Below are positions 4,162 through 53,441 of a stretch of DNA of 64,000 nt, one piece after another (positions within the stretch are counted from its first letter, which is position 1; the number at the start of each line of letters is the position of its first letter). The position numbers and the translations under genes were made by a program. Source of the DNA: an uncultured Acetobacteraceae bacterium (lineage in GTDB: Bacteria > Pseudomonadota > Alphaproteobacteria > Acetobacterales > Acetobacteraceae). Location of the stretch: positions 357 through 64,356 of the forward strand of contig CAXTPG010000011.1 of NCBI GenBank assembly GCA_964246015.1, read 5' to 3'. The notes under the pieces were generated by a model. It was not told the origin of the DNA. It ran no database searches and worked only from the letters and a program-made list of their open reading frames with translations.

Positions 4162-7100
4162 TCACACGGCGAAGGCAATGCGGCCTTGCTGGCTTCCGAC
4201 GCTGGCGAAGTGGGCGAGGGGGTCGATGTTGGCGGCCCGGACGTCGCTATAGGCGGCGAAGTACTTGTTCGTGCTGAAATTGGCCGAGGGGTCGCGGCCC
4301 TCCCGCCAGCCAAGCGTCTCGTAGTGGGTGAGGGCGTCGAAGAAGTTGGCGGCGACGTCGGGGTTGCGGGCGTTGTAGTAGGCGGCGTCGAAGAGAGCGG
4401 CCTCGGGGGTCGAGTAGGCGTGGGCGGCGTGGACCGGGGTGGCGGCGTCCTCGGTTCCGCGAATGAACGAGAGGAGGGGGTCGGTCCCCGTGGTGTCGGG
4501 ATGGGCGGCCTGGTAGCGCGAGAGGGAGAACCACGGGCTGGGATCGCGTCCGCGGGTCCAGCCGAGGTTCTCGAAGTGGAGCAGGGGGTCGATCTTGCGG
4601 GACGCGACCTCGGGATTTTCGAGTTGGTAGTAGGTGGTGTCGAACCAGGGGTTGGGGTCGTAGCGGAGAGTCCAGCCGATGGTGTGATAGTGGGTTGCGG
4701 CGTCAAGGCCGGAGGCGGCGGCGTCGGGGTGCTGGGCGAAGTACCAGGCGCTGTCGACGAGGGGATCGTCGAAGCCGGTTGCGGGCTCGATGGCGCGGCC
4801 CTGGTCGCGTCCGGTCTGGATGTAGTGCTGCAGCGGATTGATGCCGGAGTCGCGGACGTCGGCGTTGGCGGTGAGGTAGGCGGAGGTGGAGAAGAGGGGC
4901 GAGGGGTCGCGGCCCTCGATCCATCCGATGGTCGCGTAGTGCAGGAGCGGATCGACTCCGGACGCGGCGACGTCGGGGTAGCGGTTGAGATAATAGGCGG
5001 TGTCGAAGAAGGCGGAGGGGTTGCGGTCCTCACGCCAGCCGAGGGTTTCGTAGTGGGTGAGCGGGTCGAAGTGGTTGGCGGGGACGTCGGGGTTGCGGGC
5101 GACGTAGTAGGCAGCGTCGAAGAGGGCTGCCTCGGGGTTGGAGTAGAGGTTGAGGCGGGCGGTCGGCGGATCCTCGTTGCTGGCGAGGAAGGCCGATAGG
5201 GGGTTGGTCCCGAAGGCGGTGGGGTGGGCGGCCTGCCATGCCTTGACCGAGAACCAGGGGCTCGGGTCCTGCCCGGTGCGCCAGCCGACCGCCTCGAAAT
5301 GCGTGAGGGGGTCCATGCCCGCGGCATAGAGGCCGGGATTCTGGAGCTGGTAGAAGGTTGTGTCGAACCAGGGGTTGGGGTCGTAGCGGAGGGTCCAGCC
5401 GGTGGTCTTGTAGTGGGCGGCGGCGGTCATTCCGCTGGCGGCGGCGTCGGGGTGGCGGGCGAAGTACCAGGCGCTGTCGACGAGCTCGTTTACGACGGAC
5501 GCGTGGTCGATCGCCGGCTGGATGGCCCGTCCCTGGGCACGGCCGGTTTCCAGGTAGTGCTGGAGCGGGTCTATCCCGGCGGCGCGGACGTCGGGGTTCT
5601 GGGCGAGGTAGTCGGCAACGGAGAACCGGGGCGACGGGTCGCGCCCCTGGGCCCAACCGGTCTGCTCGAAATGCTGGAGCGGGTTGATGCCCGAGGCGGC
5701 GACGTCGGGATTTTGGCTGAGGTACCAGCGCGTATCGAACCATGCGTTTGGATTGCGGCCCTCGCGCAATCCCCACGTGGTCCAGTGCTGCAGCGGGTCG
5801 ATTCCCGCGGCGCGCACGTCGGCGTTCTGGGCAAGGTAGAAGACCGGGTCGAAGTCGGGGAACTTGCTGGTGCTGAAAAGCGTGCCCGACCACGTGGTGC
5901 GACTGTAGTCGAGGGTCACGGACGGCGCGACAGGCACGTTGTCGAGCTGTGCCGAGCCGATGAACAGCGCGCCGGCCGTGGGCCCCTGCCTGTAGACGAT
6001 GTTGGTGGTGGCGATGGTCACGGCGTGGGCGCCGTTGCCCCACCAGCCCGTGAAGGTGAAGGTCTGGGTTCCCGCGCCGACGAGGGTCGTGACGACGCCG
6101 CTGCCGGCGATGGCGCCGTCGATCGTGACGGTGAACGCGACGTCGAGATCACCCTTCTGCTGCGCGAGGCGGAGGGTGAGCGTGTTGGGTCCCGGCGACA
6201 CGGGGCTGAACAGCGGCGGGGCAAGGGCGGCGGACCAGGGCGGCGTGGTGTCGAGGACCGGCGCCCCCGCGAGCGGCACGGTGGCCGCGGTGGCACCGAC
6301 CCCGATATAGGCCTGGCTGCCCGGCACGCCGCCGTAGAAGCGGTTGGCCAAGGCGGTCACGGGTGGGACGGCGCCCGATCCGTCGTCACCCACGACGAAG
6401 TAGGTGTAGGGGTGCCCGGGATTGTAGAGCCGCGTGACGAATGCGTTGCCGATCAGCTCGACGTCGCTGTTGCCGTAGGCGGGGCCCTCGCCGCCGACGT
6501 GGACCAGCAGGCCGTTCTCGGCGTCCGGTCCTTTTTCCAGCAGGTTGTTGCGAAGGGTGACGTTGCCGCCCTGGCCGATGTTGACCAGGAAGCTGGCTTG
6601 GACGCCCGGGCCGTCCCAGATCGCGTTGTCCTCGATGAGGGCGTTGTAGGCGCGCAGCGAGATCTCGTGGCCGGAGGTGGCGCCGTGGATGGAGGAGCGG
6701 CGGATGACCAGGCTGCCGATGGCGCCGATGGTGAGATTATGGGTACCCTTGGCCTCGTTGCCGTTGGGCCCGATCTCGGAATCGACGATGAGGATGGCGG
6801 TGTTCGGGTTGTCGTCGGCCAGGATGCCGATGTCGTTGCCGTGGAACCACGAGTTGACGATCGTGACGCGGCCGCCCTTGACCAGAATGCCGCCCTCGTG
6901 GCCGCCGTAGTTCGTGGCGCCCGTGAACTCGAGGTTGCGGAGGGTGGCGTCGGTGGTGATGACGAGGATGCCGTTGCTGGCGTCGAGCATGTTGGACTGG
7001 ACGAAGCGGGCGATACCGCCGACACCCTCGATGATCACCTTCTTGCTGACGGTGCCGAAGTCGTTGACGTAGGTGCCGGCCGCCACCTTGATGGTGTCCC

Positions 7101-8181
7101 CGTCGCGGGCGGACGCGAGGGCGGCGGAGAGCGTGGAGAACCGCCCCGTCGGCCCGACGGTCAGGACGCGGCCGGTGGGCGCGACCACCCCCTGATCGCC
7201 CCAATCCTGAAGGAAGGTGTCCTCGGGGACCGGCGTGAACACGGGGTCCGCCGAGCGGGGGGCCACGGCGGGCGCCTTCGACGTCAGGTCGAGGCTGGGC
7301 CGTTGGCTGAGGACGGTGTTCCCGGCCTGGACGACCGAGCCGAGCGAGATGTGGTTGGCCGCCCAGCCCCAGAGGCGGTTGCCGGTGAGGACGGCGGAGC
7401 CGTTGGTGGCGGCGTTGACGATCAGGTAGCCGTTCGGATTGTCGTTGATGATGGTGTTGTCGACGATGTTGAGGGCGGAGTTGGGATACGACGTCCCCTC
7501 CCCGCCATAATGGATGGCGATCCAGTTCTCGGTGTCGGGCCCCTTCTCGATGACGTTGCCCATGATGGTCGCGAGGCCGCCGTCGGGGATGTCGATGCTG
7601 TAGCTGCCGTTCCCGGTGTTGTCCTGGATGCGGTTGTTCAGAAGGGTGGTGTTGCGGGCGCGCGACTTGATCTCGTGCCCGACGACGGAGTCGTGGAAGT
7701 AGCTGTCGCGGACGGTGAGGGAGGCGATGGCGCCGATATAGAGGTTGTGGGTGAGGCCGTCGCCGGCGCCGTTGTGGCTGAACTCGGAGTTCTCGATGAG
7801 GATGGTGCCGTCGGCCCAGCCGTTGGCGAGGATGCCATCCTGGTTGTCCCAGAAGACACAGTCGCGCACGACGAGGTTGCCGAGGTCGTAGCGGATGCCG
7901 GCGCCGTTGCCGTCGCCCACCCGGCTACCGGTGAAACCGAAGCCCTCGATCGTCAGGTCCGCGTCGGCGACGATCAGGCCCTTGCCGTTCGACGGCTCCT
8001 TGGTCCCGGCGATGATCGCGCGTCCGCCGACGGACTTCAGGGTGATCTTGTGGGTGACCGTGAACGCGTCATCGACATAGGTGCCGGCCCGCACCAGCAC
8101 CGTATCGCCGTCGCGCGTGTTGCGGACGGCATCGGCAATGGTCGTGTATTGCTGGCCTGCGCCGACAGTGAGCGTCGTCAT
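4162..8181 (-). CDS. Giant (1339 aa) protein: two right-handed parallel beta-helix modules, a beta-sandwich-like spacer, and 14 C-terminal ~37-aa repeats; probably secreted or surface-located
   Basis: Single uninterrupted ORF. Two paralogous modules (aa ~1-300 and ~335-640) share TVG...Y.T...A....DGDT..V.AGTY, THNL.IGAI.SL..R.S..H....GHEI, and EKGPD.EN...H.GGEG. Gly/Asn/Ile-rich turns are typical of the pectate-lyase fold. The C-terminal repeat consensus is YY...NPDVaaaG.DPL.HY...GW.EGRDPS..F. No N-terminal signal peptide is evident. Confidence 0.85.
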   Translation of the reverse strand: MTTLTVGAGQQYTTIADAVRNTRDGDTVLVRAGTYVDDAFTVTHKITLKSVGGRAIIAGTKEPSNGKGLIVADADLTIEGFGFTGSRVGDGNGAGIRYDLGNLVVRDCVFWDNQDGILANGWADGTILIENSEFSHNGAGDGLTHNLYIGAIASLTVRDSYFHDSVVGHEIKSRARNTTLLNNRIQDNTGNGSYSIDIPDGGLATIMGNVIEKGPDTENWIAIHYGGEGTSYPNSALNIVDNTIINDNPNGYLIVNAATNGSAVLTGNRLWGWAANHISLGSVVQAGNTVLSQRPSLDLTSKAPAVAPRSADPVFTPVPEDTFLQDWGDQGVVAPTGRVLTVGPTGRFSTLSAALASARDGDTIKVAAGTYVNDFGTVSKKVIIEGVGGIARFVQSNMLDASNGILVITTDATLRNLEFTGATNYGGHEGGILVKGGRVTIVNSWFHGNDIGILADDNPNTAILIVDSEIGPNGNEAKGTHNLTIGAIGSLVIRRSSIHGATSGHEISLRAYNALIEDNAIWDGPGVQASFLVNIGQGGNVTLRNNLLEKGPDAENGLLVHVGGEGPAYGNSDVELIGNAFVTRLYNPGHPYTYFVVGDDGSGAVPPVTALANRFYGGVPGSQAYIGVGATAATVPLAGAPVLDTTPPWSAALAPPLFSPVSPGPNTLTLRLAQQKGDLDVAFTVTIDGAIAGSGVVTTLVGAGTQTFTFTGWWGNGAHAVTIATTNIVYRQGPTAGALFIGSAQLDNVPVAPSVTLDYSRTTWSGTLFSTSKFPDFDPVFYLAQNADVRAAGIDPLQHWTTWGLREGRNPNAWFDTRWYLSQNPDVAASGINPLQHFEQTGWAQGRDPSPRFSVADYLAQNPDVRAAGIDPLQHYLETGRAQGRAIQPAIDHASVVNELVDSAWYFARHPDAAASGMTAAAHYKTTGWTLRYDPNPWFDTTFYQLQNPGLYAAGMDPLTHFEAVGWRTGQDPSPWFSVKAWQAAHPTAFGTNPLSAFLASNEDPPTARLNLYSNPEAALFDAAYYVARNPDVPANHFDPLTHYETLGWREDRNPSAFFDTAYYLNRYPDVAASGVDPLLHYATIGWIEGRDPSPLFSTSAYLTANADVRDSGINPLQHYIQTGRDQGRAIEPATGFDDPLVDSAWYFAQHPDAAASGLDAATHYHTIGWTLRYDPNPWFDTTYYQLENPEVASRKIDPLLHFENLGWTRGRDPSPWFSLSRYQAAHPDTTGTDPLLSFIRGTEDAATPVHAAHAYSTPEAALFDAAYYNARNPDVAANFFDALTHYETLGWREGRDPSANFSTNKYFAAYSDVRAANIDPLAHFASVGSQQGRIAFAV
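4165..5853 (-). repeat. Coding tandem-repeat array (14 units of ~36-38 codons, organised 3+6+5 as a higher-order repeat)
   Basis: I counted the units in the translated ORF. Units 4-9 and 10-14 are colinear copies of each other (VDSAWYFA.HPDAAASG...HY.T.GWTLRYDPNPWFDTT.YQL.NP ... PEAALFDAAYY.ARNPDV.AN.FD.LTHYETLGWRE). Units 1-3 match the tail of that super-unit. Confidence 0.85.
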
Positions 8182-11532: not shown

Positions 11533-11924
11533 GGTTCGTGGACGGTGTGGCCGCGGGCACGGGCCGCGGCGGCAGCCTGGCGATCGAAGGTGACGAAGGT
11601 GTTGCCGCCGAGTTGCGCCCCTTGGTAGGCGATGACGCCGTCCGCGAAATCGGCGCCGGCTTTCAGGAAGGCGAGGCCCGCTTCGACGGCGGCGCGGTCG
11701 GAGATCGTCGTTTCGGCGGAAAGAAGGCGCTCGATCGACGCGGCCACATCCGCCGCGGAGCGCTTCAATGTGCGGGTCAGAACCCAGACGAACTCGCAAA
11801 GAACGGTGGTGGTGAGGACAATCGTGGTCGCCGATGCAAGGATATGCTCGGCCCGTTCCGTCTGATCGGGGTCGTCGCCAATTGAAGCCCGGAGGAGGAT
11901 ATTCGTATCCGGCGTGATGTTCAC
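11529..11924 (-). CDS. vapC: Type II toxin VapC (PIN-domain ribonuclease)
   Basis: 131 aa, beginning MNITPDTNILLRA. Contains CEFVWVL and a C-terminal TFD motif. Its start overlaps the stop of the upstream AbrB-type antitoxin by 4 nt. Confidence 0.85.
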   Translation of the reverse strand: MNITPDTNILLRASIGDDPDQTERAEHILASATTIVLTTTVLCEFVWVLTRTLKRSAADVAASIERLLSAETTISDRAAVEAGLAFLKAGADFADGVIAYQGAQLGGNTFVTFDRQAAAAARARGHTVHEP

Positions 11925-12178
11925 CGTTCGCCAGCCCAGCCCGCTTCGATTGCGTCCTTGATCTCATCCAGCGAAAGCGGAGGGCCGTCGTAGTGAATCG
12001 AGCCGAAGAATGCCTGGATCGACCCCCGTGGCGCCGCACGGACCTCGATCCGCCCGTTCGGGAGCAGATCGACCATCACCTTGTCTCCAGGACCTACCCC
12101 GATATGATCGAGCACCTGCCGGCGCAGGGTGACCTGGCCCTTGCTCGTGATCTTCAGTGCAGTGGATCGCTTCGGCAT
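11921..12178 (-). CDS. vapB: Type II antitoxin, AbrB/SpoVT (MazE-like) family
   Basis: 85-aa internal ORF (ATG 12178-12176) of ORF 11921..12592. MPKRSTALKITSKGQVTLRRQVLDHIGVGPGDKV is a typical looped-hinge-helix motif. Confidence 0.8.
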   Translation of the reverse strand: MPKRSTALKITSKGQVTLRRQVLDHIGVGPGDKVMVDLLPNGRIEVRAAPRGSIQAFFGSIHYDGPPLSLDEIKDAIEAGWAGER

Positions 12179-12219
12179 GCTCTGAAAGTAAGGCAACACG
12201 CCCTTACCTTCAAGCAAAC

Positions 12220-12828
12220 TCATTCCGTCAGGATCGGGATCAGCGACAGGACCAGCAGCCCCGCCATGACCAGGTTGAACGCGCGCATGCCCCGGTCCGT
12301 GCGGAGCAGGCGCGCGGCGCCGACGCCGGTCAGGGTCCAGAAGGCGGAGGAGGCGGCGCCGACCGCGACGAACAGCAGGGTCAGCAGGACGGCCTTTGCG
12401 GGCGCTGCCGGGGCGGCGGCGTAGGTGCCGACGGCGCCGAGGGCGATCACCCAGGCCTTCGGGTTCATCCACTGGAACAGCGAGGCCTGGAGGAAGGTGA
12501 GGGGCTTGCCCGCGGCGGGCATGCCGTCCGGCGTGGGCCGCGCCGTGGCGATGCGCCAGGCGAGCCAGAGCAGGTAGCCCACCCCGCCCCATTTCAGGGC
12601 GTGCTGCAGAAACGGGGCGGCGCGCAGCAGGTCCCCGAGGCCCAGGGTCACGCCCAGCAGCATGACCGGGAAGCCCAGCGCCACGCCGGCCATGTGGGGC
12701 ACGCTGCGGGGAAACCCGAAGCTGTTGCCCGAGGCGGCGAGCATGGCGTTGTTGGGACCGGGGCTTGCGGACATGACGGTCGCGAAGGCCGTGGCGGCCA
12801 GCAGCCAGGTCGGGAGGTCGGGGATCAT
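12220..12828 (-). CDS. LysE/RhtB family amino-acid exporter
   Basis: Start chosen at MIPDLPTWLL (ATG 12828-12826). Has the family signature SPGPNN and 6 TM segments. Confidence 0.85.
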   Translation of the reverse strand: MIPDLPTWLLAATAFATVMSASPGPNNAMLAASGNSFGFPRSVPHMAGVALGFPVMLLGVTLGLGDLLRAAPFLQHALKWGGVGYLLWLAWRIATARPTPDGMPAAGKPLTFLQASLFQWMNPKAWVIALGAVGTYAAAPAAPAKAVLLTLLFVAVGAASSAFWTLTGVGAARLLRTDRGMRAFNLVMAGLLVLSLIPILTE

Positions 12829-44555: not shown

Positions 44556-45898
44556 TTCGCCGCCTCCGCCCGGGGAGCGGCGTATCGGCTCTCCGGCCGG
44601 GCCACGCCCAGGTTCTCCCGCAGCGTCGCCCCTTCGTACGCCGTCCGGTACAGCCCGCGCCGCTGCATCTCCGGCACCACCATCTCGACGAAATCTTCCA
44701 GCCCACCCGGCATGTGCGTCGCCAGCACGTTGAACCCGTCCGCCGCCCCGTTCTCGAACCACTCCTGCATGTGATCCACGATCTGCGCGGGCGTCCCGAT
44801 CATCTGCCGGTGCCCGTTCCCCGCCGCGATCGCCATGTAGAGCTGCCGGATCGTCAGCCCGTCCCGCGCCGCCCGGTCATACATCAACTGCCCCCGGCTC
44901 CGCATCCGCCACTCCGGCAGCAGCGGCACCGGCCCGTCCAGGTCGTAGCCCCGCAGATCCCCCATCGACCCCGCCAATTGCGACAACCCCACCAGCGGAT
45001 CGATCAACGCCTGCAGCACCTCGTGCTTGTCGTGCGCCTCCTGCGCCGTTCGCCCGACGATCGCCAGCAGCCCCGGCATGATCTTCAGCGCATCCGGCGC
45101 CCGTCCGTACTTCGCCATCCGGCCCTTCACCGAGGCGTAGTACGCCTGCGCCTCCCCGATCGTCTGGGACGCCGCATAGATGACGTCCGCCGTCGCCGCC
45201 GCCAGCTCCCGCCCCTGTTCGGAAGCCCCCGCCTGCACGATCACCGGGTGGCCCTGCGGCGTGCGCGCGACGTTCAACGGCCCCCGAACGCTGAAATGCT
45301 TGCCCTTGTGCGCCAGGATCCGCAGCTTGCCCGGGTCGTAGTTGACCCCGCTCGCCTGGTCCCGCACGAACGCATCGTCGTCCCAGCTGTCCCACAACCC
45401 CCGCACGACGTCGACGAACTCGATCGCCCGGTCGTAGCGGTCGTCATACCCCGGCGACTCCGGCAGGTTGAAGTTCTGCGCCTCCATATCCGTGCGGGAC
45501 GTCACCACGTTCCACCCGGCCCGGCCGCCGCTGATGTGGTCCAGCGACGCGAACTTCCGCGCCACATGGTACGGCTCGTTGTACGTGGTGCTCGCCGTCG
45601 CGACCAACCCCACCCGCGACGTCACCATCGCCAGCGCGGACAGCAGGGTCGTCGGCTCGAAATGCACGTTGTTGGACATGCGGGACAACGACCCCTCCGG
45701 CTCGTCATAGGCCCGGATGCCCACCCCGTCTGCCAGGAACGCCATGTCGAACAGCCCGCGCTCCGCGGCCTGCGTCACCCGCACGTAGTGCGTCAGCTCC
45801 ATGTTGCCGCCCGGCGGAGTTTCCGGATGCCGCCACGCCGCCGGGTGATACCCCAGCCCGATCATCGACACGCCCAGCTTGATCTGCCGCTTGCCCAT
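44552..45898 (-). CDS. LLM-class flavin-dependent monooxygenase (NtaA/SnaA/DszA family)
   Basis: Internal ATG at 45898-45896, beginning MGKRQIKLGVSMIGLGYHPAAWRHP, the canonical family start. Other blocks: FLAD, EP...L.ALA..T..IGL..T.ST.Y..PY..AR.FA.LD..S.GR.GWN.VT. Confidence 0.9.
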   Translation of the reverse strand: MGKRQIKLGVSMIGLGYHPAAWRHPETPPGGNMELTHYVRVTQAAERGLFDMAFLADGVGIRAYDEPEGSLSRMSNNVHFEPTTLLSALAMVTSRVGLVATASTTYNEPYHVARKFASLDHISGGRAGWNVVTSRTDMEAQNFNLPESPGYDDRYDRAIEFVDVVRGLWDSWDDDAFVRDQASGVNYDPGKLRILAHKGKHFSVRGPLNVARTPQGHPVIVQAGASEQGRELAAATADVIYAASQTIGEAQAYYASVKGRMAKYGRAPDALKIMPGLLAIVGRTAQEAHDKHEVLQALIDPLVGLSQLAGSMGDLRGYDLDGPVPLLPEWRMRSRGQLMYDRAARDGLTIRQLYMAIAAGNGHRQMIGTPAQIVDHMQEWFENGAADGFNVLATHMPGGLEDFVEMVVPEMQRRGLYRTAYEGATLRENLGVARPESRYAAPRAEAAN

Positions 45899-46206
45899 GG
45901 CCTCGCTCCCGGTCGCAATGCTCGGTACCAGAAATCTTGCAAGCGCTATACCAGGCCTGACAAGCACCAGCCGCGACGATGCTCGCGGTCGGCCAAAGGC
46001 GGCGCCCGGCCCCATGACCGGGATGCACCGCCGGCCGCCATCCTCCGGGACAGCCTGGCCCAGACCGCGAAACGTCTTCCGCCAGGCCGCAATCGCCGCG
46101 AGCGCGGCCAGGATCGAGCGTTGACGGGTCGTCTCCGCACCATTTACGCTCGTGCAACGGCCATCCCCTCCCCCGGCTTGGCCATCCCCGAATCAGGACG
46201 CCGCAC

Positions 46207-47037
46207 GTGGATCAAGCCCTGACGGACCGCCCGCCCGCACCCGCCCAGGCCGCCCCGCCCGACCCCGCGGCACGCGCAGCCGCGATCCTCGCCGCCTTCC
46301 ACACCGCCCTCGACGGCCCGACCGCCTTCACCCTCGCCTATCAGCCCCGGCTCGACATCCGCACCGCCCGCTGGACCGCGACCGAGGCCCTGCTGCGCTG
46401 GACCGACCCCGTCCTGGGGCCGCTTTCCCCCGCCGAGTTCATTCCCCTGCTCGAACACCATCGCCTGATCCGCCCCCTGACAAGGTGGGTCGTTCGCCGG
46501 GCCCTGGCCGACCACGTCGCCTGGACCGCCCTCGGCCACACGCTCGCCGTCTCCATCAACCTCTCCGCCCAGGACCTCGACGACCCGGCCTTCCCGCGCT
46601 GGCTGATCGAGGCGGCTGCCCGCGCCGGCGCCGACCCGGCCCAGGTCGAGCTGGAGATCACCGAAACCGCCAGGCTCCAGGAAGACGGCCCCGCCGCCGC
46701 AACGCTCGCGCGCCTTGCCCAGGCCGGGTTCGGCATCGCCATCGACGACTTCGGCGCCGGCTACAGCAACCTGCTCGCCCTGCGCGACGTCCCCGCCCGC
46801 ATCCTCAAGCTCGACCGCGGCCTCAGCCGATCGCTCGACACCAACCAGCGGGACCGCGTCATCGTCCGGTCCGTCATCGGCATGGCCCACGCCCTCGGCC
46901 TCATTGTCGTCGCCGAAGGCGTCGAGACGGCCCCGATCCTCGGCCTGCTGACCGAATGGGGCTGCGACCAGGCCCAGGGATGGCACATCGCCCGCCCCAT
47001 GCCGCTCGACCGCCTCCTCGCCCTCGCGCCCCATTGA
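46207..47037 (+). CDS. Stand-alone EAL-domain protein (predicted c-di-GMP phosphodiesterase)
   Basis: 276 aa with a GTG start. The catalytic set is present: EALLRW, SINLS (Asn), ELEITE, DDFGAGYS, KLD, AEGVE, QG. No sensor or GGDEF domain. Confidence 0.85.
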   Translation: MDQALTDRPPAPAQAAPPDPAARAAAILAAFHTALDGPTAFTLAYQPRLDIRTARWTATEALLRWTDPVLGPLSPAEFIPLLEHHRLIRPLTRWVVRRALADHVAWTALGHTLAVSINLSAQDLDDPAFPRWLIEAAARAGADPAQVELEITETARLQEDGPAAATLARLAQAGFGIAIDDFGAGYSNLLALRDVPARILKLDRGLSRSLDTNQRDRVIVRSVIGMAHALGLIVVAEGVETAPILGLLTEWGCDQAQGWHIARPMPLDRLLALAPH

Positions 47038-47044
47038 CCGACAC

Positions 47045-50000
47045 TTGACCACCCAGCGCACCGCCCGCCTCTTCGTCGCATCGCCGGGCGATGTCGGCCC
47101 CGAACGCCTCCGCCTCCAGTACATCGCCGACCGGCTCTCCGACGAACCCGGCGCACCCATCCGGTTCGAGGTCGTCCGGTGGGAGGAACGCCACTACCGC
47201 GCCAACCGCGGCTTCCAGGAACAGATCCCCGAACCCGCGTCCTGCGACATCGTCGTCGTCGTCTTCGGCAACGAACTCGGCACCCCCCTGGATGGCGACT
47301 TCAAGCACCGCATGCCCGGCGGCCAGCCGTATCCCAGCGGCACCGCCTACGAACTGCTTTCCGCCATCGACGCGGCCGACGCCAGCGGAAAGGGCGTTCC
47401 CGACGTCTTCGTCTACCGCAAGGCCGCCGTGCAGGCCTACACCGTCGACGAGGACGACGCCTACGACAGGGCGCGCGCCGCCCGAAAACGGCTCGACGCC
47501 TTCCTGCAGCACTCCTTCCGCACCGGCTCCGGCGGATGGCGGCGAAGCTACGTCCCCGTCGTCTCGACCGACGATTTCGGCGCTCGGGTCGAATCCATGC
47601 TCCGCGCCTGGGTCCGCGAACAGGGCGCCGAGGCCCTCGACCTCCGCTGGCGCATCGACCAGCAGGGATCCCCGTTCCGGGGCCTCGAAACCTTCGACGC
47701 AAGGCACGCCGCTGTCTTCTTCGGCCGCAACCAGAAGGTCCAGACCGCCACCGCCGCCCTCGTCGAGGCCGGCAACAGCCCCGCCCGCCACCCCTTCCTT
47801 CTCGTCGTCGGACCCAGCGGCGCCGGCAAGTCCTCCCTCGTTCGCGCCGGCGTCGTCCCGCGCGTCACGATGCCCGGCGCCGTTCCCGGCATCGACGCCT
47901 GGCGCGTCGCCGTCATGCGCCCCGGCGCCGCCGCCACACCCTTCGACTCCCTGGCCACCGCCCTCTTCCGCGACGGCAGCCCCGACCAGGACCCCGGCGG
48001 CTTCGGACCCGCCCTTCCCGAACTCGCCCAAGGCCTCTACGCGGACCCCGCCACCCTCGCCACCGCCCTCCGCCTCGATGCCGACGTCCGCGCCGCCCCC
48101 ATCATCGCCGCCCTGGACACCGCCGCAGCCGCCGAGGCCCGCCGCCGCGGCATCGAACATCCCTTCCGCACCGACCTCGTCCTCCTCGTCGACCAACTCG
48201 ACGAGGTCTTCGCCGCCGACGTCCCCGAACCCGAACGACGGGACTTCGGCCGCCTTCTGCTCGCGCTCGTCCGCAGCCGCCGGGTCTGGATCATCGCCAC
48301 CCTCCGCGCCGACCTCGTCGCCCGCATGATCGCCGACCCCGTCTTCCTTGCCCTTGCCGACAGGGGCGCCGAGTACAAGCTCGCCTCCCCCGGCGAAGCC
48401 GAACTCCGCGAGATCCTCGGCGACTCCGCCGCGGCGGCCGGCCTCGCCTACGACAACGACCCCGAACTCGGCCGCACCCTCGACGAGCAGCTTCTTCTCG
48501 ACGCAAGCGGCGCCGACGCCCTGCCGCTGCTGCAGTTCGCACTGAAGCAGCTCTTTGAAAAACGCGAGACGCTCGACCCGGCAACCGGCGCCGTCGCCCG
48601 CCTCACCTTCGCCGCCTATCGCGGGTTCGGCGGCCTCGACGGCGCCATCGACAGCGTCGGCGAGCAGGCGATCGCATCCGCCGCCCGCGAACTGGGCGAG
48701 GCCACGATCGAGACGGCACTGCCCCGCATGCTCCGCCGCATGGCCGCCGCCGTCCAGGAAGACGCGGGCGCCCTCGCCGGCACCATGGCCCTCACCCTCC
48801 GCGGCGCAACCCTCGACCACGCCGCCCCTGACGCCCCCTCCCGCCGCCTCGCCGGGATGCTCGTCGACGCCCGCCTGCTCGTCACCGACCGCGGCCCCGG
48901 CGGCGGCATGCTCCGCGTCGCCCATGAGCGCGTCATGACGAGCTGGCGCCGCGCCCGCGCCGTCGCGACCGGCCAGCGCGACTTCTTCCGCATCGCCCGC
49001 GACGTGGAACGCCAGCGCCAGCGCTGGGCCGACGGCGCGGAACGCCGCGAGCTGTTGCTGGAAGAAGGCGCACCCATCCAGGACGCCCAGCGCGTCCTCC
49101 GCGACTTCGGCGACGACCTGAGCCCCGCCACCCGCGACTACGTCGGACTCAGCCTGCGCCGTGCCCGCTGGTCCCGCCGCCGCCGCCGGGCCGCGATCGC
49201 CACCCTCTGCGCAACCGCCATGGTCGCGACCGTCGCCGCGTTCCTCGCCCGCAGCGTCGGCGAACGCTCCGAACGCAACTTCGAGGCGGCCCGAGGCGCC
49301 GCCGACCAGCTCGTCGCCGCCCTTCCCCAGCAGCTTCGGAACCAGCAAAACGTCAGCTTCCTCACCGTCGACACCGTCCTCCACGTCGTCGACACGCTTC
49401 TGACCACCATCGAAACCCAGCTCGCGGCCCCGCAGGGCGTCGTGCAGCACCAGGTCGAGGCCGTCGCCGCCCGCATGGGCGGCCTTTTTCCCGGTGCCGG
49501 CGCCGCGGCCGCATCCCTCGCCCGCATCCGCCGCAACCGTGCCGACATGCTCTACGAGTTCGCCGAAACCTACCACCAGGCCGCCGACAACCTCGCCCGC
49601 GCCCAGGACGCCGCCGAACGCAGCCTTGCCCTCTACACCGCCCTCCGCGACGAGGGCGACGTCTCCCCGGGCCTCGCCTGGCGGTTGCACCTCGTCCGCA
49701 TGGCGCTGGCCGATCTTCTCCGCGACGCCCTCAGACGCCCTCCGCCCCCGCGCCCACCGCCGCCCCAGGCCTATGCCGGCGTCATGCAGCACCTCACCCT
49801 TGCCCACGATATCGCCCGCGACCTCGTCGCCCGTGCCCCGGAAAACCTCGCCTTCGCCGCCGGCCTCTCCAAGGCCGTCACCCGCCAGGGCGACGTCCTC
49901 ATGCTCCAGAACGACCCGGCCGCCGCCGAACGCGCCTACGCCGAGCTGCAATCCCTCGCCCTCGCCGCATACCGCCGCGCGCCCGACGACATCCCCACCC

Positions 50001-50602
50001 TCCGCGAGCTGGGCTGGAGCTACCGCAAGCGCGGCGAAGCCCTCGCCCGCCCGGGCCCCAGCGCCCCCGCCCTCATCGAATTCGGCCGAGAGCTCTGCCT
50101 CCGCCGCGACGTCCTCCGCCGCAAGGGCGACGACCGCCTCCTCGACGAAGACCTCGGCTTCAGCCTCGCCAAGCTCGCCGAGGAGCGCGCCCGCCTCGGC
50201 GACCTCCAGGGCGCCCGCATCGCCTACTCCGTCGCCCTCGACCGCCGCACCGCCCTCGCTGACGGCGACTCCTCCAGCCGCAACTACGCCGAGACCGCAG
50301 CCCTCGCCATCGAACGCCTCCGCGACCTCTTCGACCGAATGGGCGACCGCCAGCGCGCCTTCGACTTTGCCGCCGCCGCCGCCGAGCGCCGCACCGGCAT
50401 CGCCCGCAAATGGACCGACCCCCGCTCTGCCGACTCCCTCGCCGCTGCGCAGACCCGTCTGAAGTCCCTGTCCGACCCTCCCCTCACCCCGACCGCCTCC
50501 TTTGAACAGGAACGCGCCTGGGCCACGTCCCACGCCGCCCCCGCCCTCGACGAGTGGGCCGCCGCCTGCACTGCCGAGCTCTCCCCCTACGGCGGCCCGT
50601 GA
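47045..50602 (+). CDS. Membrane-spanning STAND-type P-loop NTPase with a DUF4062/TIR-like N-terminal domain and a helical-repeat C-terminal domain
   Basis: 1185 aa, with a TTG start 7 nt after the EAL stop. N-terminus: RLFVASPGDVGPER...CDIVVVVFGNELG...SGTAYELLSAI....PDVFVYRK. NTPase: PFRGLETFDARHAAVFFGRN, Walker A VVGPSGAGKSSLVRAGVVP (47804-), Walker B LVLLVDQLDEVF, and sensor-like VWIIATLRADL and LRVAHERVMTSWRR. One TM helix AAIATLCATAMVATVAAFLA (49190-49249) is preceded by RRARWSRRRRR. Confidence 0.8.
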   Translation: MTTQRTARLFVASPGDVGPERLRLQYIADRLSDEPGAPIRFEVVRWEERHYRANRGFQEQIPEPASCDIVVVVFGNELGTPLDGDFKHRMPGGQPYPSGTAYELLSAIDAADASGKGVPDVFVYRKAAVQAYTVDEDDAYDRARAARKRLDAFLQHSFRTGSGGWRRSYVPVVSTDDFGARVESMLRAWVREQGAEALDLRWRIDQQGSPFRGLETFDARHAAVFFGRNQKVQTATAALVEAGNSPARHPFLLVVGPSGAGKSSLVRAGVVPRVTMPGAVPGIDAWRVAVMRPGAAATPFDSLATALFRDGSPDQDPGGFGPALPELAQGLYADPATLATALRLDADVRAAPIIAALDTAAAAEARRRGIEHPFRTDLVLLVDQLDEVFAADVPEPERRDFGRLLLALVRSRRVWIIATLRADLVARMIADPVFLALADRGAEYKLASPGEAELREILGDSAAAAGLAYDNDPELGRTLDEQLLLDASGADALPLLQFALKQLFEKRETLDPATGAVARLTFAAYRGFGGLDGAIDSVGEQAIASAARELGEATIETALPRMLRRMAAAVQEDAGALAGTMALTLRGATLDHAAPDAPSRRLAGMLVDARLLVTDRGPGGGMLRVAHERVMTSWRRARAVATGQRDFFRIARDVERQRQRWADGAERRELLLEEGAPIQDAQRVLRDFGDDLSPATRDYVGLSLRRARWSRRRRRAAIATLCATAMVATVAAFLARSVGERSERNFEAARGAADQLVAALPQQLRNQQNVSFLTVDTVLHVVDTLLTTIETQLAAPQGVVQHQVEAVAARMGGLFPGAGAAAASLARIRRNRADMLYEFAETYHQAADNLARAQDAAERSLALYTALRDEGDVSPGLAWRLHLVRMALADLLRDALRRPPPPRPPPPQAYAGVMQHLTLAHDIARDLVARAPENLAFAAGLSKAVTRQGDVLMLQNDPAAAERAYAELQSLALAAYRRAPDDIPTLRELGWSYRKRGEALARPGPSAPALIEFGRELCLRRDVLRRKGDDRLLDEDLGFSLAKLAEERARLGDLQGARIAYSVALDRRTALADGDSSSRNYAETAALAIERLRDLFDRMGDRQRAFDFAAAAAERRTGIARKWTDPRSADSLAAAQTRLKSLSDPPLTPTASFEQERAWATSHAAPALDEWAAACTAELSPYGGP

Positions 50603-50649
50603 CCGCGGGACCGGTTCCCCGCCCGTCCCGCCTGGGGCATCATGCCGCC

Positions 50650-51510
50650 ATGCCCCTCCCCCGCCGCCGCTTCCTGTTCGCCGCAGCCTGCGCCGCCTGC
50701 GCCCCAACCGCCCTGCGCGCCGCCACTGCGCCCGACGCGCTCGCAACCGTCCCCGCCCCAACCCTCACCCCCGCCGAGCAGGAGCGCCACCGCATCCTCA
50801 TGCTCCTCGCCATGGCCCTCACCCACGACGAATGGGGCATCAACCCGGAGCGCCCGGACCTCCTTCGCGACTATGCCGCCGCGGCACCCGGACGCTCCTT
50901 CCGTCCCTATGTCGGCCACAATATCGGCGCCCTTCTCGTCGACGCCGCCGGGGGCATCGTCGGCTTCCAGCGCAACCGCAACGTCCAGCTCAACAGCACG
51001 CTGGAACACGCCGAGGCCCGCGCCGTCCGCATCGCCATCGCCGACGCCAACGCGCGCCGCCGCCGCGCCGGCCTCCGTCTCAACGACTACGCGACCCTGC
51101 TTCGCGGCCACCGCGTCTACACGACGCTCGAACCCTGCGCCCAGTGCGCCGGCATCATGACGCTCGCGACGCTCGACGCCGTCGTCTTCCCCCAGGACGA
51201 CCCCGGCCAGCACCACGTCGCCGCCATCCTCTACAACCTCAACGACGGCCTCGGCCCCCGCCGCGGCCCGGCCCCCTTGCGCGCCGCCTTCATGCCGCAG
51301 GCCGCCGCCCTCGCCGACGCCTACGCCGCCTTCGCCGCCGCCGCCCCCCCGGGCGGACGCACCGGCCTCACCTCCTTCCTCGAGACCGTCGCCGCCTGGC
51401 GCATCTTCGGCACCGCCGTCCAGGACCTCGCGACGATGCAGCCCGAGGACCCCGCCAACCGCCAGAACCTGGCTGCCGCACGCGCGTTCCGCAACCGCCC
51501 GCGCCTATAG
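50650..51510 (+). CDS. CDA-fold (cytidine/deoxycytidylate-type) zinc deaminase with a Tat-type signal peptide
   Basis: Internal ATG at 50650 of ORF 50554..51510. Begins MPLPRRRFLFAAACAACAPTALRAATAP (twin-Arg plus h-region plus AxA). Zinc motifs: LEHAEARA (H120, E122) and TLEPCAQCAG (C163, C166). Confidence 0.75.
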   Translation: MPLPRRRFLFAAACAACAPTALRAATAPDALATVPAPTLTPAEQERHRILMLLAMALTHDEWGINPERPDLLRDYAAAAPGRSFRPYVGHNIGALLVDAAGGIVGFQRNRNVQLNSTLEHAEARAVRIAIADANARRRRAGLRLNDYATLLRGHRVYTTLEPCAQCAGIMTLATLDAVVFPQDDPGQHHVAAILYNLNDGLGPRRGPAPLRAAFMPQAAALADAYAAFAAAAPPGGRTGLTSFLETVAAWRIFGTAVQDLATMQPEDPANRQNLAAARAFRNRPRL

Positions 51511-53286
51511 CGGCCGGCACGCCTCCGCCAACCACGCGCGGGCCGCCCCGTCCAGCCGGGGCCCCACCTCCGCCAGCACCCGCCCGTGATAGGCGTCGAG
51601 CCAGGCCCGCTCCTTGACGGTCAGCATCTCCGCGTCGACCAGCCGCCGGTCGAACGGCGCCCAGGTCAGCACCTCGAACCCCAGGAAGGGCTTGCGCGCC
51701 ATGGGCGCCGGATGCGGCTGCACGATCAGAAGATTCTCGAGCCGGATGCCGTACCCGCCCGGCTCGTAGAACCCCGGCTCGTTCGACATGATCATCCCGG
51801 GCGCCAGCGCCACCGGCCTTGCGTTGCGCGACAGGCTGGCCGGCCCCTCGTGCACGCTCAGAAAGCTGCCGACGCCGTGCCCGGTGCCGTGGTCGTAATC
51901 CAGCCCCGCGGCCCACAACGCCCGCCGCGCGAACGCGTCGAGATGCGGCCCGGCAACCCCCTTCGGGAACACGGCCGTCGCGATCGCGATGTGTCCCTGC
52001 AGCACCCGCGTGAACCGGTCGCGCAACTCCGCCGGCGGCTGCCCCGGTCCCGTCCACACCGTCCGCGTCACGTCCGTCGTCCCGTCCGGATACTGCGCGC
52101 CGCTATCGATCAGATAGGTCTCGTCCGGACCCAGCACGCGGTCCGTCTCCGGCGACACGCGGTAATGGATGATGGCCCCGTTCGGCCCGGACCCCGAGAT
52201 GGCCGGGAAGCTCTCCTCGCGGAAGCCCGGGACCTCTCCGCGCAACGCCAGCAGCCGGGCCGCCGCCTGCATCTCCGTCGTGTCCGCCCGCCGGCCGGTA
52301 TCCAGCCAGTGCAGGAACCGGCAGACCGCGACCGCATCCCGGCGATGGGCCGCCCGCGCGCCGTCCTGCTCCGTCGCGTTCTTGCAGGACTTCGGCAGCG
52401 CGCAAGGGTCCGGCCCATCCATGACGCGCGCGCCCGCAGCCTCCAGCCGCTGCGCGAACCACACCGGCGCCCCGGCCCGATCGACCCGCACCGTCTTGCC
52501 CGAAAGCCCGGCAAGCGCACCCTCCAGCGCAGCCGGGGCCGCCACGGACACCCCGTTCCCCAGCCACGCCCGCGTCTCCGGCCCCAGCTTCCCGGGATCC
52601 ATGAAGACCTGCACCCCTCCGTCGTCGTGCAGGACCGCAAACCCGAGCGCGAACGGCGTGAACGACAGGTCCCCCCCCCGAATGTTGAGCAGCCACGCGA
52701 GCGACGCCGGGTCCGTCAGCACCGCCGCATCCTGCCCGGCCTCCCGCAACGCGCGCCCCAGCTCCGTCCGCTTCTCCGCCGACGCGACGCCCGAGTATTC
52801 CAGCCCATGCGGCACCGCCGCCGCCACCGGCGGCGCCGGGCGATCCGGCCAGGCCGCATCGATCGGATTCCGCTCGACCGGCACCATCGACAGCCCGGCA
52901 TCGACATACCGCGCCAGCCCGTCCGCGCTCATCAGCCGCGGGTCGTAGCCGATGCGCGCGCCCACCCCCGCGTGCTCCTGCAGCCACGCCGGCGCCGGCT
53001 CCTCGATCATGTGCCGCCGCTCGAACAGCGCCGGGTCGGTCTGCGTCTCCATCTGCGCCACATACCGCCCGTCCGTGAACGCCGCGGCCCGGTCCGGCAG
53101 GACGCAGGCAAGCCCGGCGCTGCCGGTGAACCCCGTCAACCAGGCCAGACGCTCCGCCCCGGGCGGGACATATTCACCCAGATGCTCATCGGCGCGTGGC
53201 ACCACGAAGCCCTGCAACCCTGCAGCGGAAAGCTCTGCCCGGACGGTTGCGAGGCGGTCGGCATGGGTGTCGGCGGCGATCATCAT
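51505..53286 (-). CDS. Aminopeptidase P / Xaa-Pro aminopeptidase family (M24B) protein
   Basis: Start chosen at MMIAADTHADRLATVR (53286). Has a creatinase/prolidase N-domain plus M24 metal-ligand blocks (YLIDSGAQY.DGTTDVTRT, HGTGHGVG, EPG.Y, GIR.EN). Confidence 0.9.
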   Translation of the reverse strand: MMIAADTHADRLATVRAELSAAGLQGFVVPRADEHLGEYVPPGAERLAWLTGFTGSAGLACVLPDRAAAFTDGRYVAQMETQTDPALFERRHMIEEPAPAWLQEHAGVGARIGYDPRLMSADGLARYVDAGLSMVPVERNPIDAAWPDRPAPPVAAAVPHGLEYSGVASAEKRTELGRALREAGQDAAVLTDPASLAWLLNIRGGDLSFTPFALGFAVLHDDGGVQVFMDPGKLGPETRAWLGNGVSVAAPAALEGALAGLSGKTVRVDRAGAPVWFAQRLEAAGARVMDGPDPCALPKSCKNATEQDGARAAHRRDAVAVCRFLHWLDTGRRADTTEMQAAARLLALRGEVPGFREESFPAISGSGPNGAIIHYRVSPETDRVLGPDETYLIDSGAQYPDGTTDVTRTVWTGPGQPPAELRDRFTRVLQGHIAIATAVFPKGVAGPHLDAFARRALWAAGLDYDHGTGHGVGSFLSVHEGPASLSRNARPVALAPGMIMSNEPGFYEPGGYGIRLENLLIVQPHPAPMARKPFLGFEVLTWAPFDRRLVDAEMLTVKERAWLDAYHGRVLAEVGPRLDGAARAWLAEACRPL

Positions 53287-53441
53287 TTCTTCACATTTCA
53301 CATAGCTGCGATCTGTTCCATGCGTTTGAAGCATGGCAGCGCAAGGCAGTTAGCACATGCAGCATCGGCCCGGCGGGCGCATATACCCGCCGTCACCGAA
53401 GCGGCAGCCCCTGCCGGAACCGACTTGAAAAGGATCGACAA

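Follow-up and report, generated by a model that had tools for sequence, protein, structure and literature searches.

The window analysed here, a stretch of 64,000 nucleotides from contig CAXTPG010000011.1 of an uncultured Acetobacteraceae bacterium, carries a cluster of three genes on one strand (positions 46207-51510; Table 1). The ORF map and Pfam matches identify them as genes for an EAL phosphodiesterase, a large STAND-type NTPase and a zinc deaminase, as an initial sequence-only reading had described. The spacings given in that reading are also accurate: 7 nt separate the EAL stop from the TTG start of the NTPase gene, and the ATG of the deaminase gene lies 47 nt past the NTPase stop. The reported upstream gap of 308 bp depends on where the divergent luciferase-like monooxygenase gene begins; it holds if the start is placed at position 45898, an internal Met (MGKRQIKLG) selected by choice, but shrinks to 191 bp if the ORF is taken as listed, extending to 46015. 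This gap is presumed to be the promoter region of the cluster, and no sigma-70-like site or Rfam match was found in it. At the other end, the convergent housekeeping gene that had been placed there is an M24 aminopeptidase gene (51505-53334, minus strand), whose 3' end overlaps that of the deaminase gene by 6 nt. Co-transcription of the cluster is suggested by the 7-nt and 47-nt gaps, by 4-nt gene overlaps in homologous loci and by the absence of any terminator-like site in its intergenic gaps. The GC3 of the cluster genes (0.90-0.91) equals that of the neighbouring genes, and their codon usage is native.

Table 1. Features of the three-gene cluster, in positions of the window
Feature	Position	Strand	Basis
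Non-coding gap between divergent luciferase-like monooxygenase and EAL genes	45899..46206	.	ORF map and sequence
Stand-alone EAL phosphodiesterase, 276 aa, GTG start	46207-47037	+	Pfam EAL
NTPase gene, 1185 aa, TTG start	47045-50602	+	Pfam nSTAND1
DUF4062-type TIR-like domain, NTPase residues 1-205, predicted NADase effector	47045..47659	+	Family PF13271 matches, motifs, AF2
Candidate catalytic Glu (E103) of DUF4062-type domain	47351-47353	+	Conservation
nSTAND1 P-loop NTPase module, residues 210-666	47672..49042	+	Pfam PF20703
Walker A, GPSGAGKSS	47810-47836	+	Motif location
Walker B, LLVDQLDE	48176-48202	+	Motif location
Single predicted TM helix, residues ~716-738	49190..49258	+	Hydropathy
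TPR-like superhelix, residues 740-1185, predicted periplasmic	49262..50602	+	AF2, Foldseek
CDA-fold zinc deaminase, 286 aa, NTPase partner	50650..51510	+	Pfam, PDB profiles, motifs
Twin-arginine signal of deaminase	50650 to ~50727	+	Sequence motif
HAE motif of deaminase	51007-51015	+	Conservation
PCAQC motif of deaminase	51133-51147	+	Conservation

The N-terminal domain of the NTPase, which had been guessed to be DUF4062-like, matches PF13271 weakly when the window protein is searched by itself (14.3 bits against a gathering cutoff of 24.7; E=0.047). The guess finds support at the level of the family, in which 16 of the 18 aligned N-termini match this profile, with a best E of 3.5e-6. Residues F10 and E103 are invariant among the homologues and W46-E47 nearly so, and they correspond to the published DUF4062 motifs (Phe, W-E and catalytic Glu; 10.64898/2026.06.25.731849), a correspondence drawn by position and motif rather than by alignment to Eva01 or KpSwz. 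The AF2 model of the domain has an alpha/beta fold (pLDDT 87) and gives weak Foldseek matches to NDT (TM 0.49) and TIR (TM 0.47) structures. Two 2026 preprints have shown experimentally that DUF4062 proteins act as NADases in anti-phage defence (10.64898/2026.05.01.722283, 10.64898/2026.06.25.731849), and the N-terminus of the window NTPase is predicted to be a cytosolic, TIR-like NADase of this type. The nSTAND1 module that follows is matched strongly by PF20703 (242.8 bits, cutoff 27.1; E=1.2e-71), and the key residues of both Walker motifs are invariant in an alignment of 37 homologues (A1).

Beyond the NTPase module lies the one Kyte-Doolittle peak of the protein that exceeds 1.6; the 19-residue windows that form it begin at residues 715-721 and cover approximately residues 715-739. 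The predicted TM helix is preceded by the sequence RRARWSRRRRR. The helix is kept in all 37 aligned homologues and, across phyla, in 59 of the 63 family members compared, and its Arg-rich N-terminal side is conserved as well. Judged by hydropathy, the positive-inside rule and sequence motif, the N-terminal and NTPase modules would lie in the cytosol and the C-terminal domain in the periplasm. That domain is modelled by AF2 as all-helical, with about 18 helices (pLDDT 80.6), and its best Foldseek matches are the TPR domains of LGN/Pins (TM 0.5-0.63); as a TPR solenoid it comes closest to the domain with which LGN binds peptides. Two conserved cysteines in it, C1018 and C1175, also fit the predicted topology.

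The third gene product is indeed a CDA-fold zinc deaminase with a Tat signal, as had been claimed. It matches Pfam dCMP_cyt_deam_1 (PF00383; E=6.9e-11, 42.4 bits, cutoff 25), and both zinc-binding motifs are intact: among 26 homologues A121 and E122 are invariant and H120 is found in at least 90%, and P162, C163, Q165 and C166 of the PCAQC motif are likewise invariant. There is a twin-arginine motif at the N-terminus (MPLPRRRFLFAAACAAC), and in the window sequence PRRRFLFAAACAAC it is followed by a hydrophobic stretch. Of 38 close homologues, 27 have the RR motif and the others are signal-less paralogues or truncated calls; the protein is predicted to be exported by the Tat pathway. Its PDB profile matches are TadA-like deaminases, with TadA itself the best (E=4.7e-10), and it shares with the TadA/Tad2 clade the zinc-binding H-A-E and P-C-x-x-C core. 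It differs from the members of that clade (TadA, guanine and guanosine deaminases) in its length of about 290 aa and in having a Tat signal, a lipobox-like Cys and family-specific N- and C-terminal helical extensions. The JGI annotation of its homologues as tRNA adenosine deaminase TadA was rejected on score (27 bits against the NCBIfam equivalog cutoff of 150) and also on form, since TadA is cytosolic and about 150-170 aa long, whereas this protein has 286 aa, a Tat signal and extra helical regions. The extended deaminase family includes fusions to RIP toxin domains and weak APOBEC-like matches, and relatives adjoin genes for kinase-TPR and nSTAND3-like proteins and DNA methylases.

The NTPase and the deaminase are strictly co-conserved, in both directions, and the deaminase is the obligate partner of the pair. 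A deaminase gene lies at the 3' end of the NTPase gene in all 12 distinct loci of the NTPase clade, where NTPase identity is about 36-45% and the flanking genes are unrelated. The six closest NTPase homologues whose loci were looked up all adjoin a gene for a deaminase of 248-302 aa (five on the same strand, one convergent), and the same arrangement is found in L089, L090, L092, L105 and L106/107; L088 was left out as a separate locus, its deaminase being identical to the L085 copy. From the other direction, a search that scored only word-sharing candidates from 5.8e9 proteins returned only 42 deaminase matches with E<1e-5; about 38 close homologues were retrieved, and every homologue of at least 48% identity on a long enough contig lies beside such an NTPase gene. 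For several more NTPase and deaminase homologues, the contigs on which they lie agree in length. In a neighbour-joining tree, which carries no support values, the deaminase-linked NTPases group together, except that L092 falls with the deaminase-less L001.

The EAL protein behaves differently. Co-conservation, the lack of which the earlier reading had named as a refuting outcome, holds for the NTPase-deaminase pair but not for the EAL gene, a facultative member of the module that is present in 4 of the 12 loci and missing from the other 8. A signal-less deaminase paralogue takes its position in three loci of another sub-clade. Where the EAL gene is present it is closely tied to the NTPase gene: in the P0007 locus, L082 and L085 it abuts or overlaps the start of that gene. 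The protein itself matches Pfam EAL with 220.9 bits (E=2e-65) and is predicted to be a c-di-GMP phosphodiesterase: the catalytic set described by the sequence-only reading is complete (EAL-R, N118, E150/E153, DD180-181, K201, E237 and Q257) and invariant in a three-sequence alignment of the window protein with two orthologues (A5).

One might suppose that the three genes are neighbours by accident, an independent housekeeping-type deaminase and a generic EAL protein having come to lie beside an orphan STAND NTPase. The TadA name given to the deaminase homologues would suit this idea, as would the finding of equally similar EAL proteins in unrelated gene contexts. However, the genes keep their order where the genomic surroundings are unrelated, so the cluster is more than chance, and the two-way link between NTPase and deaminase, together with the low TadA equivalog score, leaves the idea with very little probability. 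For the NTPase-deaminase pair, incidental adjacency is effectively refuted by the comparative data.

The statement that the trio is no named system also stands: PADLOC and NCBIfam give no system-level match, and searches of the literature found no description of a module consisting of a membrane-spanning NLR-like NTPase and an exported deaminase. None of the PADLOC Avs or NACHT models matches the window NTPase. Across this protein and 37 homologues the Avs profiles have no match, and the only PADLOC matches are to mad3/mad8, at the level of the P-loop, and to the N-terminal part of the candidate system PDC-S60, whose 906-position profile aligns to the NTPase over just its first 55-178 positions; the DUF4062 domain is all that the two have in common. 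The Avs and bNACHT systems known so far consist, to our knowledge, of a single gene whose cytosolic product recognises phage proteins. The window NTPase resembles them in its order of parts, the effector being N-terminal, the STAND NTPase central and the TPR-type sensor C-terminal, and the logic is expected to be alike, with ligand-induced oligomerisation activating the effector. Nonetheless, it belongs to nSTAND1 rather than to the Avs or NACHT clade, has a conserved TM helix that would place its sensor outside the cytoplasm, and has an obligate partner enzyme that is predicted to be exported. An Avs-type cytosolic sensor of phage proteins would not fit, because the TPR domain follows the TM helix and is predicted to lie in the periplasm.

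The DUF4062 domain invites comparison with Swarozyc, Evangelion and PDC-S60, whose own domains of this family share the conserved Phe, the W-E pair and the candidate catalytic Glu. Swarozyc and Evangelion are defence proteins that deplete NAD+ once activated (10.64898/2026.05.01.722283, 10.64898/2026.06.25.731849). Each of these systems, PDC-S60 included, is one protein that links DUF4062 to a helical stalk or a short auxiliary region, and what the defence proteins of this type sense in the cytoplasm is the phage portal or replication intermediates. In the window the domain is instead followed by nSTAND1, a TM helix and a TPR domain, and the protein has a deaminase as partner. The eukaryotic proteins TEP1, an active NADase, NWD1 and NPHP3 likewise have DUF4062 ahead of repeat domains and a STAND NTPase. 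However, they are soluble proteins with NACHT-type NTPases and WD40 or TPR repeats, and have neither a membrane span nor a deaminase partner.

These data can be accommodated by a model, to which we assign a probability of about one half, in which the NTPase is a membrane-spanning NLR-like receptor whose periplasmic TPR domain, together with the exported deaminase, switches on NAD+ cleavage in the cytosol. The unit would be a two-gene core of NTPase and deaminase with an optional third gene. The NTPase would consist, in order, of a cytosolic DUF4062 NADase, an nSTAND1 oligomerisation switch, one TM helix and a periplasmic TPR superhelix; this is compatible with the earlier picture of a membrane-spanning NTPase and an envelope deaminase, given the Arg-rich N-side of the conserved TM helix, the TPR domain C-terminal to it, and the conserved Tat motif. 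The deaminase would be exported folded, and perhaps anchored by a lipid, to the side of the membrane where the TPR domain lies, and this domain could bind or monitor the deaminase, its substrate or its product. A periplasmic event would then relieve autoinhibition, and oligomerisation of the NTPase modules in the membrane would bring the DUF4062 domains together to cleave NAD+, leading either to growth arrest or death or to an NAD-derived signal. The optional upstream gene, encoding the EAL protein or a cytosolic deaminase paralogue, may provide a cytosolic accessory that modifies nucleotides and so sets the threshold or contributes a further output. We lean towards envelope surveillance or defence as the purpose of the module.

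Exported neighbours are a recurring theme beside related TM-STAND sub-clades. In L001, the sister of a deaminase-linked NTPase, a signal-peptide S1/P1 nuclease (Pfam 1.8e-59) occupies the downstream position of the deaminase, and in L002/L003/L080 the exported neighbours are a Tat-signal protein and DUF1353. The nuclease suggests another arrangement, in which the effector would be the exported deaminase: a periplasmic or secreted enzyme that modifies nucleic acids or nucleotides, held inactive by the TM-STAND protein until released or activated, with NAD+ cleavage as a secondary output. It could act on extracellular DNA, on DNA that has been taken up into the periplasm, or on a nucleotide signal. 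The invariant catalytic residues of the deaminase agree with this, as do the RIP fusions and APOBEC-like matches of the extended family and one sub-clade with deaminases predicted on both sides of the membrane. We nonetheless consider it improbable, for the nuclease example comes from one locus only, no nucleic-acid-binding extension was identified in the deaminase, and the invariant cytosolic NADase domain of the family would be left unexplained.

The loci looked up sit among housekeeping or metabolic genes, outside defence islands, and no homologues were found in PLSDB plasmids or INPHARED phages. Together with the native codon usage, these findings agree equally well with a resident signalling module and with defence. 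In such a non-immune module the periplasmic deaminase would process a cue of the nucleobase or nucleoside type, the TPR domain would sense the substrate or product, and the STAND switch would alter cytosolic nucleotide signalling (NAD-derived products, or c-di-GMP via the EAL protein) and thereby lifestyle, for example biofilm versus dispersal. Translational coupling of the EAL gene to the NTPase gene in four loci would be natural under this scheme, the family is large and widespread among free-living soil and water bacteria, and TadA-clade relatives do include free-base and nucleoside deaminases (guanine and guanosine deaminase). On the other hand, the DUF4062 domains characterised to date are NAD-depleting defence effectors, and the EAL gene, missing from two thirds of the loci, can be exchanged for a deaminase paralogue. 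The RIP toxin fusions of deaminase relatives and their kinase-TPR, nSTAND3-like and DNA methylase neighbours have the flavour of conflict systems, and the distribution is patchy, with differing insertion sites. Resident signalling is thus a substantial alternative, if on the whole a rather doubtful one.

The NLR-like receptor model has a broader version that we advance only tentatively. The TPR domain and the Tat-exported, possibly lipid-anchored deaminase may, as a complex, watch the periplasm for a cue that comes from an invader or contains a nucleobase, and trigger NAD+ depletion in the cytosol, and the DUF4062-nSTAND1-TM family, which spans several phyla and has varied exported partners (deaminase, S1/P1 nuclease, Tat-signal protein and DUF1353), may represent a general class of envelope-surveillance immune receptors. 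If this is true, the NTPase would be the first bacterial NLR-like receptor with sensing outside the cytoplasm.

The three same-strand genes of the cluster (see table) lie as the sequence-only reading described them, with the EAL stop codon 7 nt before the TTG of the NTPase gene and the deaminase ATG 47 nt after the NTPase stop. The 308-bp gap reported before the cluster depends on how its upstream flank, a divergent luciferase-like monooxygenase gene, is called: the gap has this length only with a start at 45898, an internal Met that was the author's choice, and would be 191 bp with the ORF as listed, which reaches 46015. The downstream flank is a convergent M24 aminopeptidase gene, whose 3' end overlaps that of the deaminase gene by 6 nt (window 51505-51510), and no terminator-like hairpin lies between these two genes. 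Promoter and terminator scans gave nothing informative in this DNA, which is 72% GC, and an Rfam search of the leader returned no match to a riboswitch or other RNA element.

Genes of the cluster, in window coordinates
Gene	Position	Strand	Start codon	Product length	Domain match
EAL	46207-47037	+		276 aa	Pfam EAL, 2e-65
NTPase	47045-50602	+	TTG	1185 aa	Pfam nSTAND1 (PF20703), 1.2e-71, residues 210-666
Deaminase	50650-51510	+	ATG		dCMP_cyt_deam_1, 6.9e-11; MafB19-deam, 5e-7

The GC3 of the three genes (0.90-0.91) equals that of the neighbouring genes, as does their base composition. A mobile-element origin was rejected on the basis of this native composition, the lack of a nearby tRNA, and the lack of any homologue among PLSDB plasmids and INPHARED phages. 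Direct or inverted repeats flanking the cluster were likewise not found beyond the chance matches of high-GC DNA. Elsewhere in the window, ARAGORN called a 101-nt tRNA-Tyr (anticodon ata) at 4211-4311, within a 1339-aa ORF on the minus strand (4162-8181); this call is most likely a false positive.

The first co-occurrence test used 80 loci from one-genome-per-species GTDB, retrieved with an alignment of NTPase homologues and searched by tblastn for the other two genes. The deaminase was found in none of the 80 and the EAL gene in only 2. This result was dropped as a refutation of co-conservation, because those loci carry more distant relatives of the NTPase. The nearest relatives (best 45% identity) occur almost only in metagenome assemblies, and in all six of those examined the NTPase 3' end carries a 248-302-aa dCMP_cyt_deam_1 gene. 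This gene is downstream on the same strand for the NTPases P0002 (locus L081), P0004 (L082), P0007 (its own locus), P0009 (L085) and P0014 (L086), and convergent for P0011 (L087). An EAL gene is found upstream of P0004, P0007 and P0009, where it abuts or overlaps the NTPase start, and not upstream of the other three. The flanking genes are wholly different among the six loci. Two loci that are otherwise unrelated have queuosine-pathway genes beside the module (TGT, QueF and QueG in L081, 11549-14792; QueC in L087, 1657-2379). No such gene was seen beside the window cluster, and the pattern, noticed post hoc, could be due to chance.

Searches from the deaminase side lead to the same pair. Only 42 proteins had E<1e-5 among the candidates scored from 5.8 billion in a word-indexed search, about 38 of them at 46-56% identity, with a steep drop thereafter; one close homologue, P0137, is annotated as Acidisphaera sp. 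For several of these proteins the contig has the same length as that of an NTPase homologue. A metagenome scan with the deaminase alignment produced 17 loci, five of them at 48% identity or above. The NTPase adjoins the deaminase in four of these five (L088, L089, L090 and L092), and the fifth, L091, is a 1.4-kb contig too short to show neighbours. Deaminase relatives at 31-40% identity in the same scan are not adjacent to an NTPase. With the further cases of L105 and L106/107, the deaminase lies beside the NTPase 3' end in 12 of the 12 distinct loci counted. The upstream position is occupied by an EAL gene in four of these (the window, L082, the P0007 locus and L085), by a signal-less deaminase paralogue with the N-terminus MxxCPGS in three (L092, L105 and L106/107), and by unrelated genes in four (L081, L086, L087 and L090); in L089 it is cut by the contig end. 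The conserved unit is therefore the NTPase-deaminase pair, which by sequence comparison is strictly co-inherited. The three genes had been proposed as one module, provided that they were co-conserved in other genomes; the proposal stands for the pair, recovered in both search directions, and not for the inconstant EAL gene. Incidental adjacency is highly improbable for a pair found together in every locus counted.

In a neighbour-joining tree of NTPase modules, which carries no support values, the deaminase-linked proteins form one group except for that of L092, which pairs with the deaminase-less L001. All-versus-all clustering of flanking ORFs found no universal neighbour across the whole NTPase family. 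In the sub-clade of L092, L105 and L106/L107, two deaminase genes flank the NTPase (1847-2734 and 6531-7322 in L092), the signal-less paralogue upstream, at the window's EAL position, and the Tat-signal form downstream. The NTPase between the two deaminase genes of L106/L107 (8976-12554) is called as three ORFs (181, 586 and 257 aa), which reflects decay of the gene or, alternatively, frameshift errors of a long-read assembly.

The EAL protein has only partial NCBIfam matches to c-di-GMP phosphodiesterases, and its complete catalytic set (EALxR, N118, E150/E153, D180-D181, K201, E237 and Q257) is invariant in an alignment with two positional orthologues. EAL proteins of 42-57% identity to it are abundant. 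The NTPase-linked EALs are mutual near-best matches, but their margin over generic EALs is small, and two of the closest homologues (P0319 and P0321) occupy contexts unrelated to the NTPase; a dedicated orthologous family was rejected for these reasons. The EAL gene is a facultative third gene, with a link to the NTPase that is not specific from the EAL side. In an Enterovirga MAG, an ORF called at 989 aa with a C-terminal EAL domain (L046:4794-7763) precedes a more distant family NTPase on the same strand, with about 200 nt between them; this contig stops within the NTPase and does not cover the region where a deaminase would sit.

The start of the NTPase is well placed, since its homologues begin at the same place (MxxxRxVRVFVSSP), and both Walker A and Walker B are intact. 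Residues 1-205 match DUF4062 weakly (E=0.047), and PF13271 is matched by 16 of 18 aligned family N-termini (best 3.5e-6). DUF4062 has been shown to be a TIR-like NADase in anti-phage defence, in Swarozyc and Evangelion (2026 preprints 10.64898/2026.05.01.722283 and 10.64898/2026.06.25.731849), with a conserved N-terminal Phe, a Q/W/E motif and a catalytic Glu as its motifs (10.64898/2026.06.25.731849). Across 37 NTPase homologues F10 and E103 are invariant and W46-E47 nearly so. In an AF2 model of the N-terminal domain (pLDDT 87), a long helical hairpin comes after an alpha/beta core. A PDB sequence search with the domain profile found no significant match, and Foldseek against the PDB gave weak matches only, to flavodoxin-like folds, nucleoside 2'-deoxyribosyltransferase and plant TIR (TM about 0.47-0.49 for the last two).

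C-terminal to the nSTAND1 module is one strong hydrophobic segment (about residues 715-739) with RRARWSRRRRR just before it. Every aligned homologue has this helix with its basic N-side, and so do 59 of 63 family members, drawn from Alphaproteobacteria, Verrucomicrobiota, Bacteroidales, Acidobacteriota and other groups. The positive-inside rule would place the C-terminal 450 residues in the periplasm. They are modelled as an all-helical TPR-like superhelix (AF2, pLDDT 80.6) whose closest fold in Foldseek is the ligand-binding TPR domain of LGN/Pins (TM 0.5-0.63), and they contain two conserved cysteines. In JGI annotation, many proteins of this DUF4062-nSTAND1-TM-TPR family are named "eukaryotic-like serine/threonine-protein kinase", and no kinase domain is among their Pfam matches; this name, like the "TPR protein" of public pipelines, is a mislabel.

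Among 26 homologues of the deaminase, A121, E122 and the PCxQC residues do not vary, and H120 is kept in at least 90%. The nearest solved relatives in a profile search are TadA-type deaminases, with guanosine and guanine deaminases next; identity with TadA itself was rejected (27 bits versus the 150-bit equivalog threshold). Helical extensions on both sides of the core are family-specific. An S/T-R-R-x-x-L twin-arginine motif is found in 27 of 38 close homologues, many with a lipobox-like LxGC-type cysteine after it, and the remainder are four signal-less paralogues and truncated or mis-started calls. The wider family (133 representatives at E<=1e-30 in an exhaustive HMM search) is mostly signal-less and 330-360 aa long, and includes fusions to a ribosome-inactivating-protein (RIP) domain, DUF2278 and RRM (P0296, P0180, P0250 and P0294). 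Among distant signal-less relatives (31-40% identity), one is encoded in overlap with the 3' end of a gene for a Ser/Thr kinase-TPR protein (L097:4003-7214). A second (L095:410-10411, the same as L096) has an N6/N4 DNA methylase on one side and, on the other, a 1235-aa protein that matches nSTAND3 weakly.

Other exported neighbours occur beside related membrane-spanning STAND proteins. In L001, a signal-peptide S1/P1 nuclease gene (11649-12488; Pfam 1.8e-59) follows the STAND gene on the same strand after 88 nt, filling the deaminase position of other loci, and the STAND protein there groups with a deaminase-linked one; HdeA-like genes flank this locus. L002, L003 and L080 share two same-strand upstream genes (e.g. 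L003:4951-7131 and 7231-7842). One product, about 700 aa long, bears a twin-arginine-type signal and matches no Pfam family; the other is a secreted DUF1353 protein. These loci support the general idea of a membrane-spanning STAND protein with an exported partner.

All three enzymes have intact catalytic motifs, the membrane span is conserved, and the deaminase carries an export signal that agrees with where the TPR domain is predicted to be. From these features and the co-inheritance of the pair we infer a membrane-spanning NLR-like receptor with NADase output, with a probability of about 0.5 that covers mechanism and not purpose. The periplasmic TPR domain would bind or monitor the exported deaminase, or the deaminase substrate or product; a periplasmic event would set off NTP-dependent oligomerisation, and the clustered DUF4062 domains would then cleave NAD+. 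The upstream EAL or cytosolic deaminase paralogue may be a cytosolic nucleotide-modifying accessory. That the exported deaminase is instead itself the effector, acting in the periplasm, is unlikely.

Within the receptor model the purpose leans towards defence or surveillance and is not settled, as the evidence on defence versus signalling is split. The predicted DUF4062 effector, the NLR-like layout, the patchy distribution at varying insertion sites and the company kept by the deaminase relatives count for a conflict role. The housekeeping neighbours of the six nearest loci, which are not defence islands, the missing plasmid and phage homologues and the native codon usage are against it or neutral, and the EAL link to c-di-GMP would fit a non-immune signalling module, which is a possible, if doubtful, alternative.

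The trio had not been recognised as any named system, and this holds: no PADLOC model covers the whole NTPase, and a full-text literature search found no description of the module or of a membrane-spanning STAND protein with an exported deaminase. The PADLOC candidate PDC-S60 is touched by 31 of 37 NTPase homologues, only over the first 55-178 of its 906 positions, the DUF4062 part. The components are of known kinds (STAND/NLR, TIR-like NADase, CDA deaminase and EAL); what is new is the membrane-spanning arrangement with an obligate exported deaminase. At two or three genes in about 5.3 kb, it is small enough to be tested directly by heterologous expression as a module. To our knowledge, the bacterial STAND/NLR-type immune receptors characterised so far act in the cytoplasm, and we know of no characterised enzyme of the CDA deaminase fold in the periplasm. 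If correct, the receptor model would bring NLR-type signalling to the cell envelope, with the logic of a surface receptor and of an NLR united in a single protein, and would provide the first biological setting both for a periplasmic CDA-fold deaminase and for the very large, uncharacterised DUF4062-nSTAND1-TM family.
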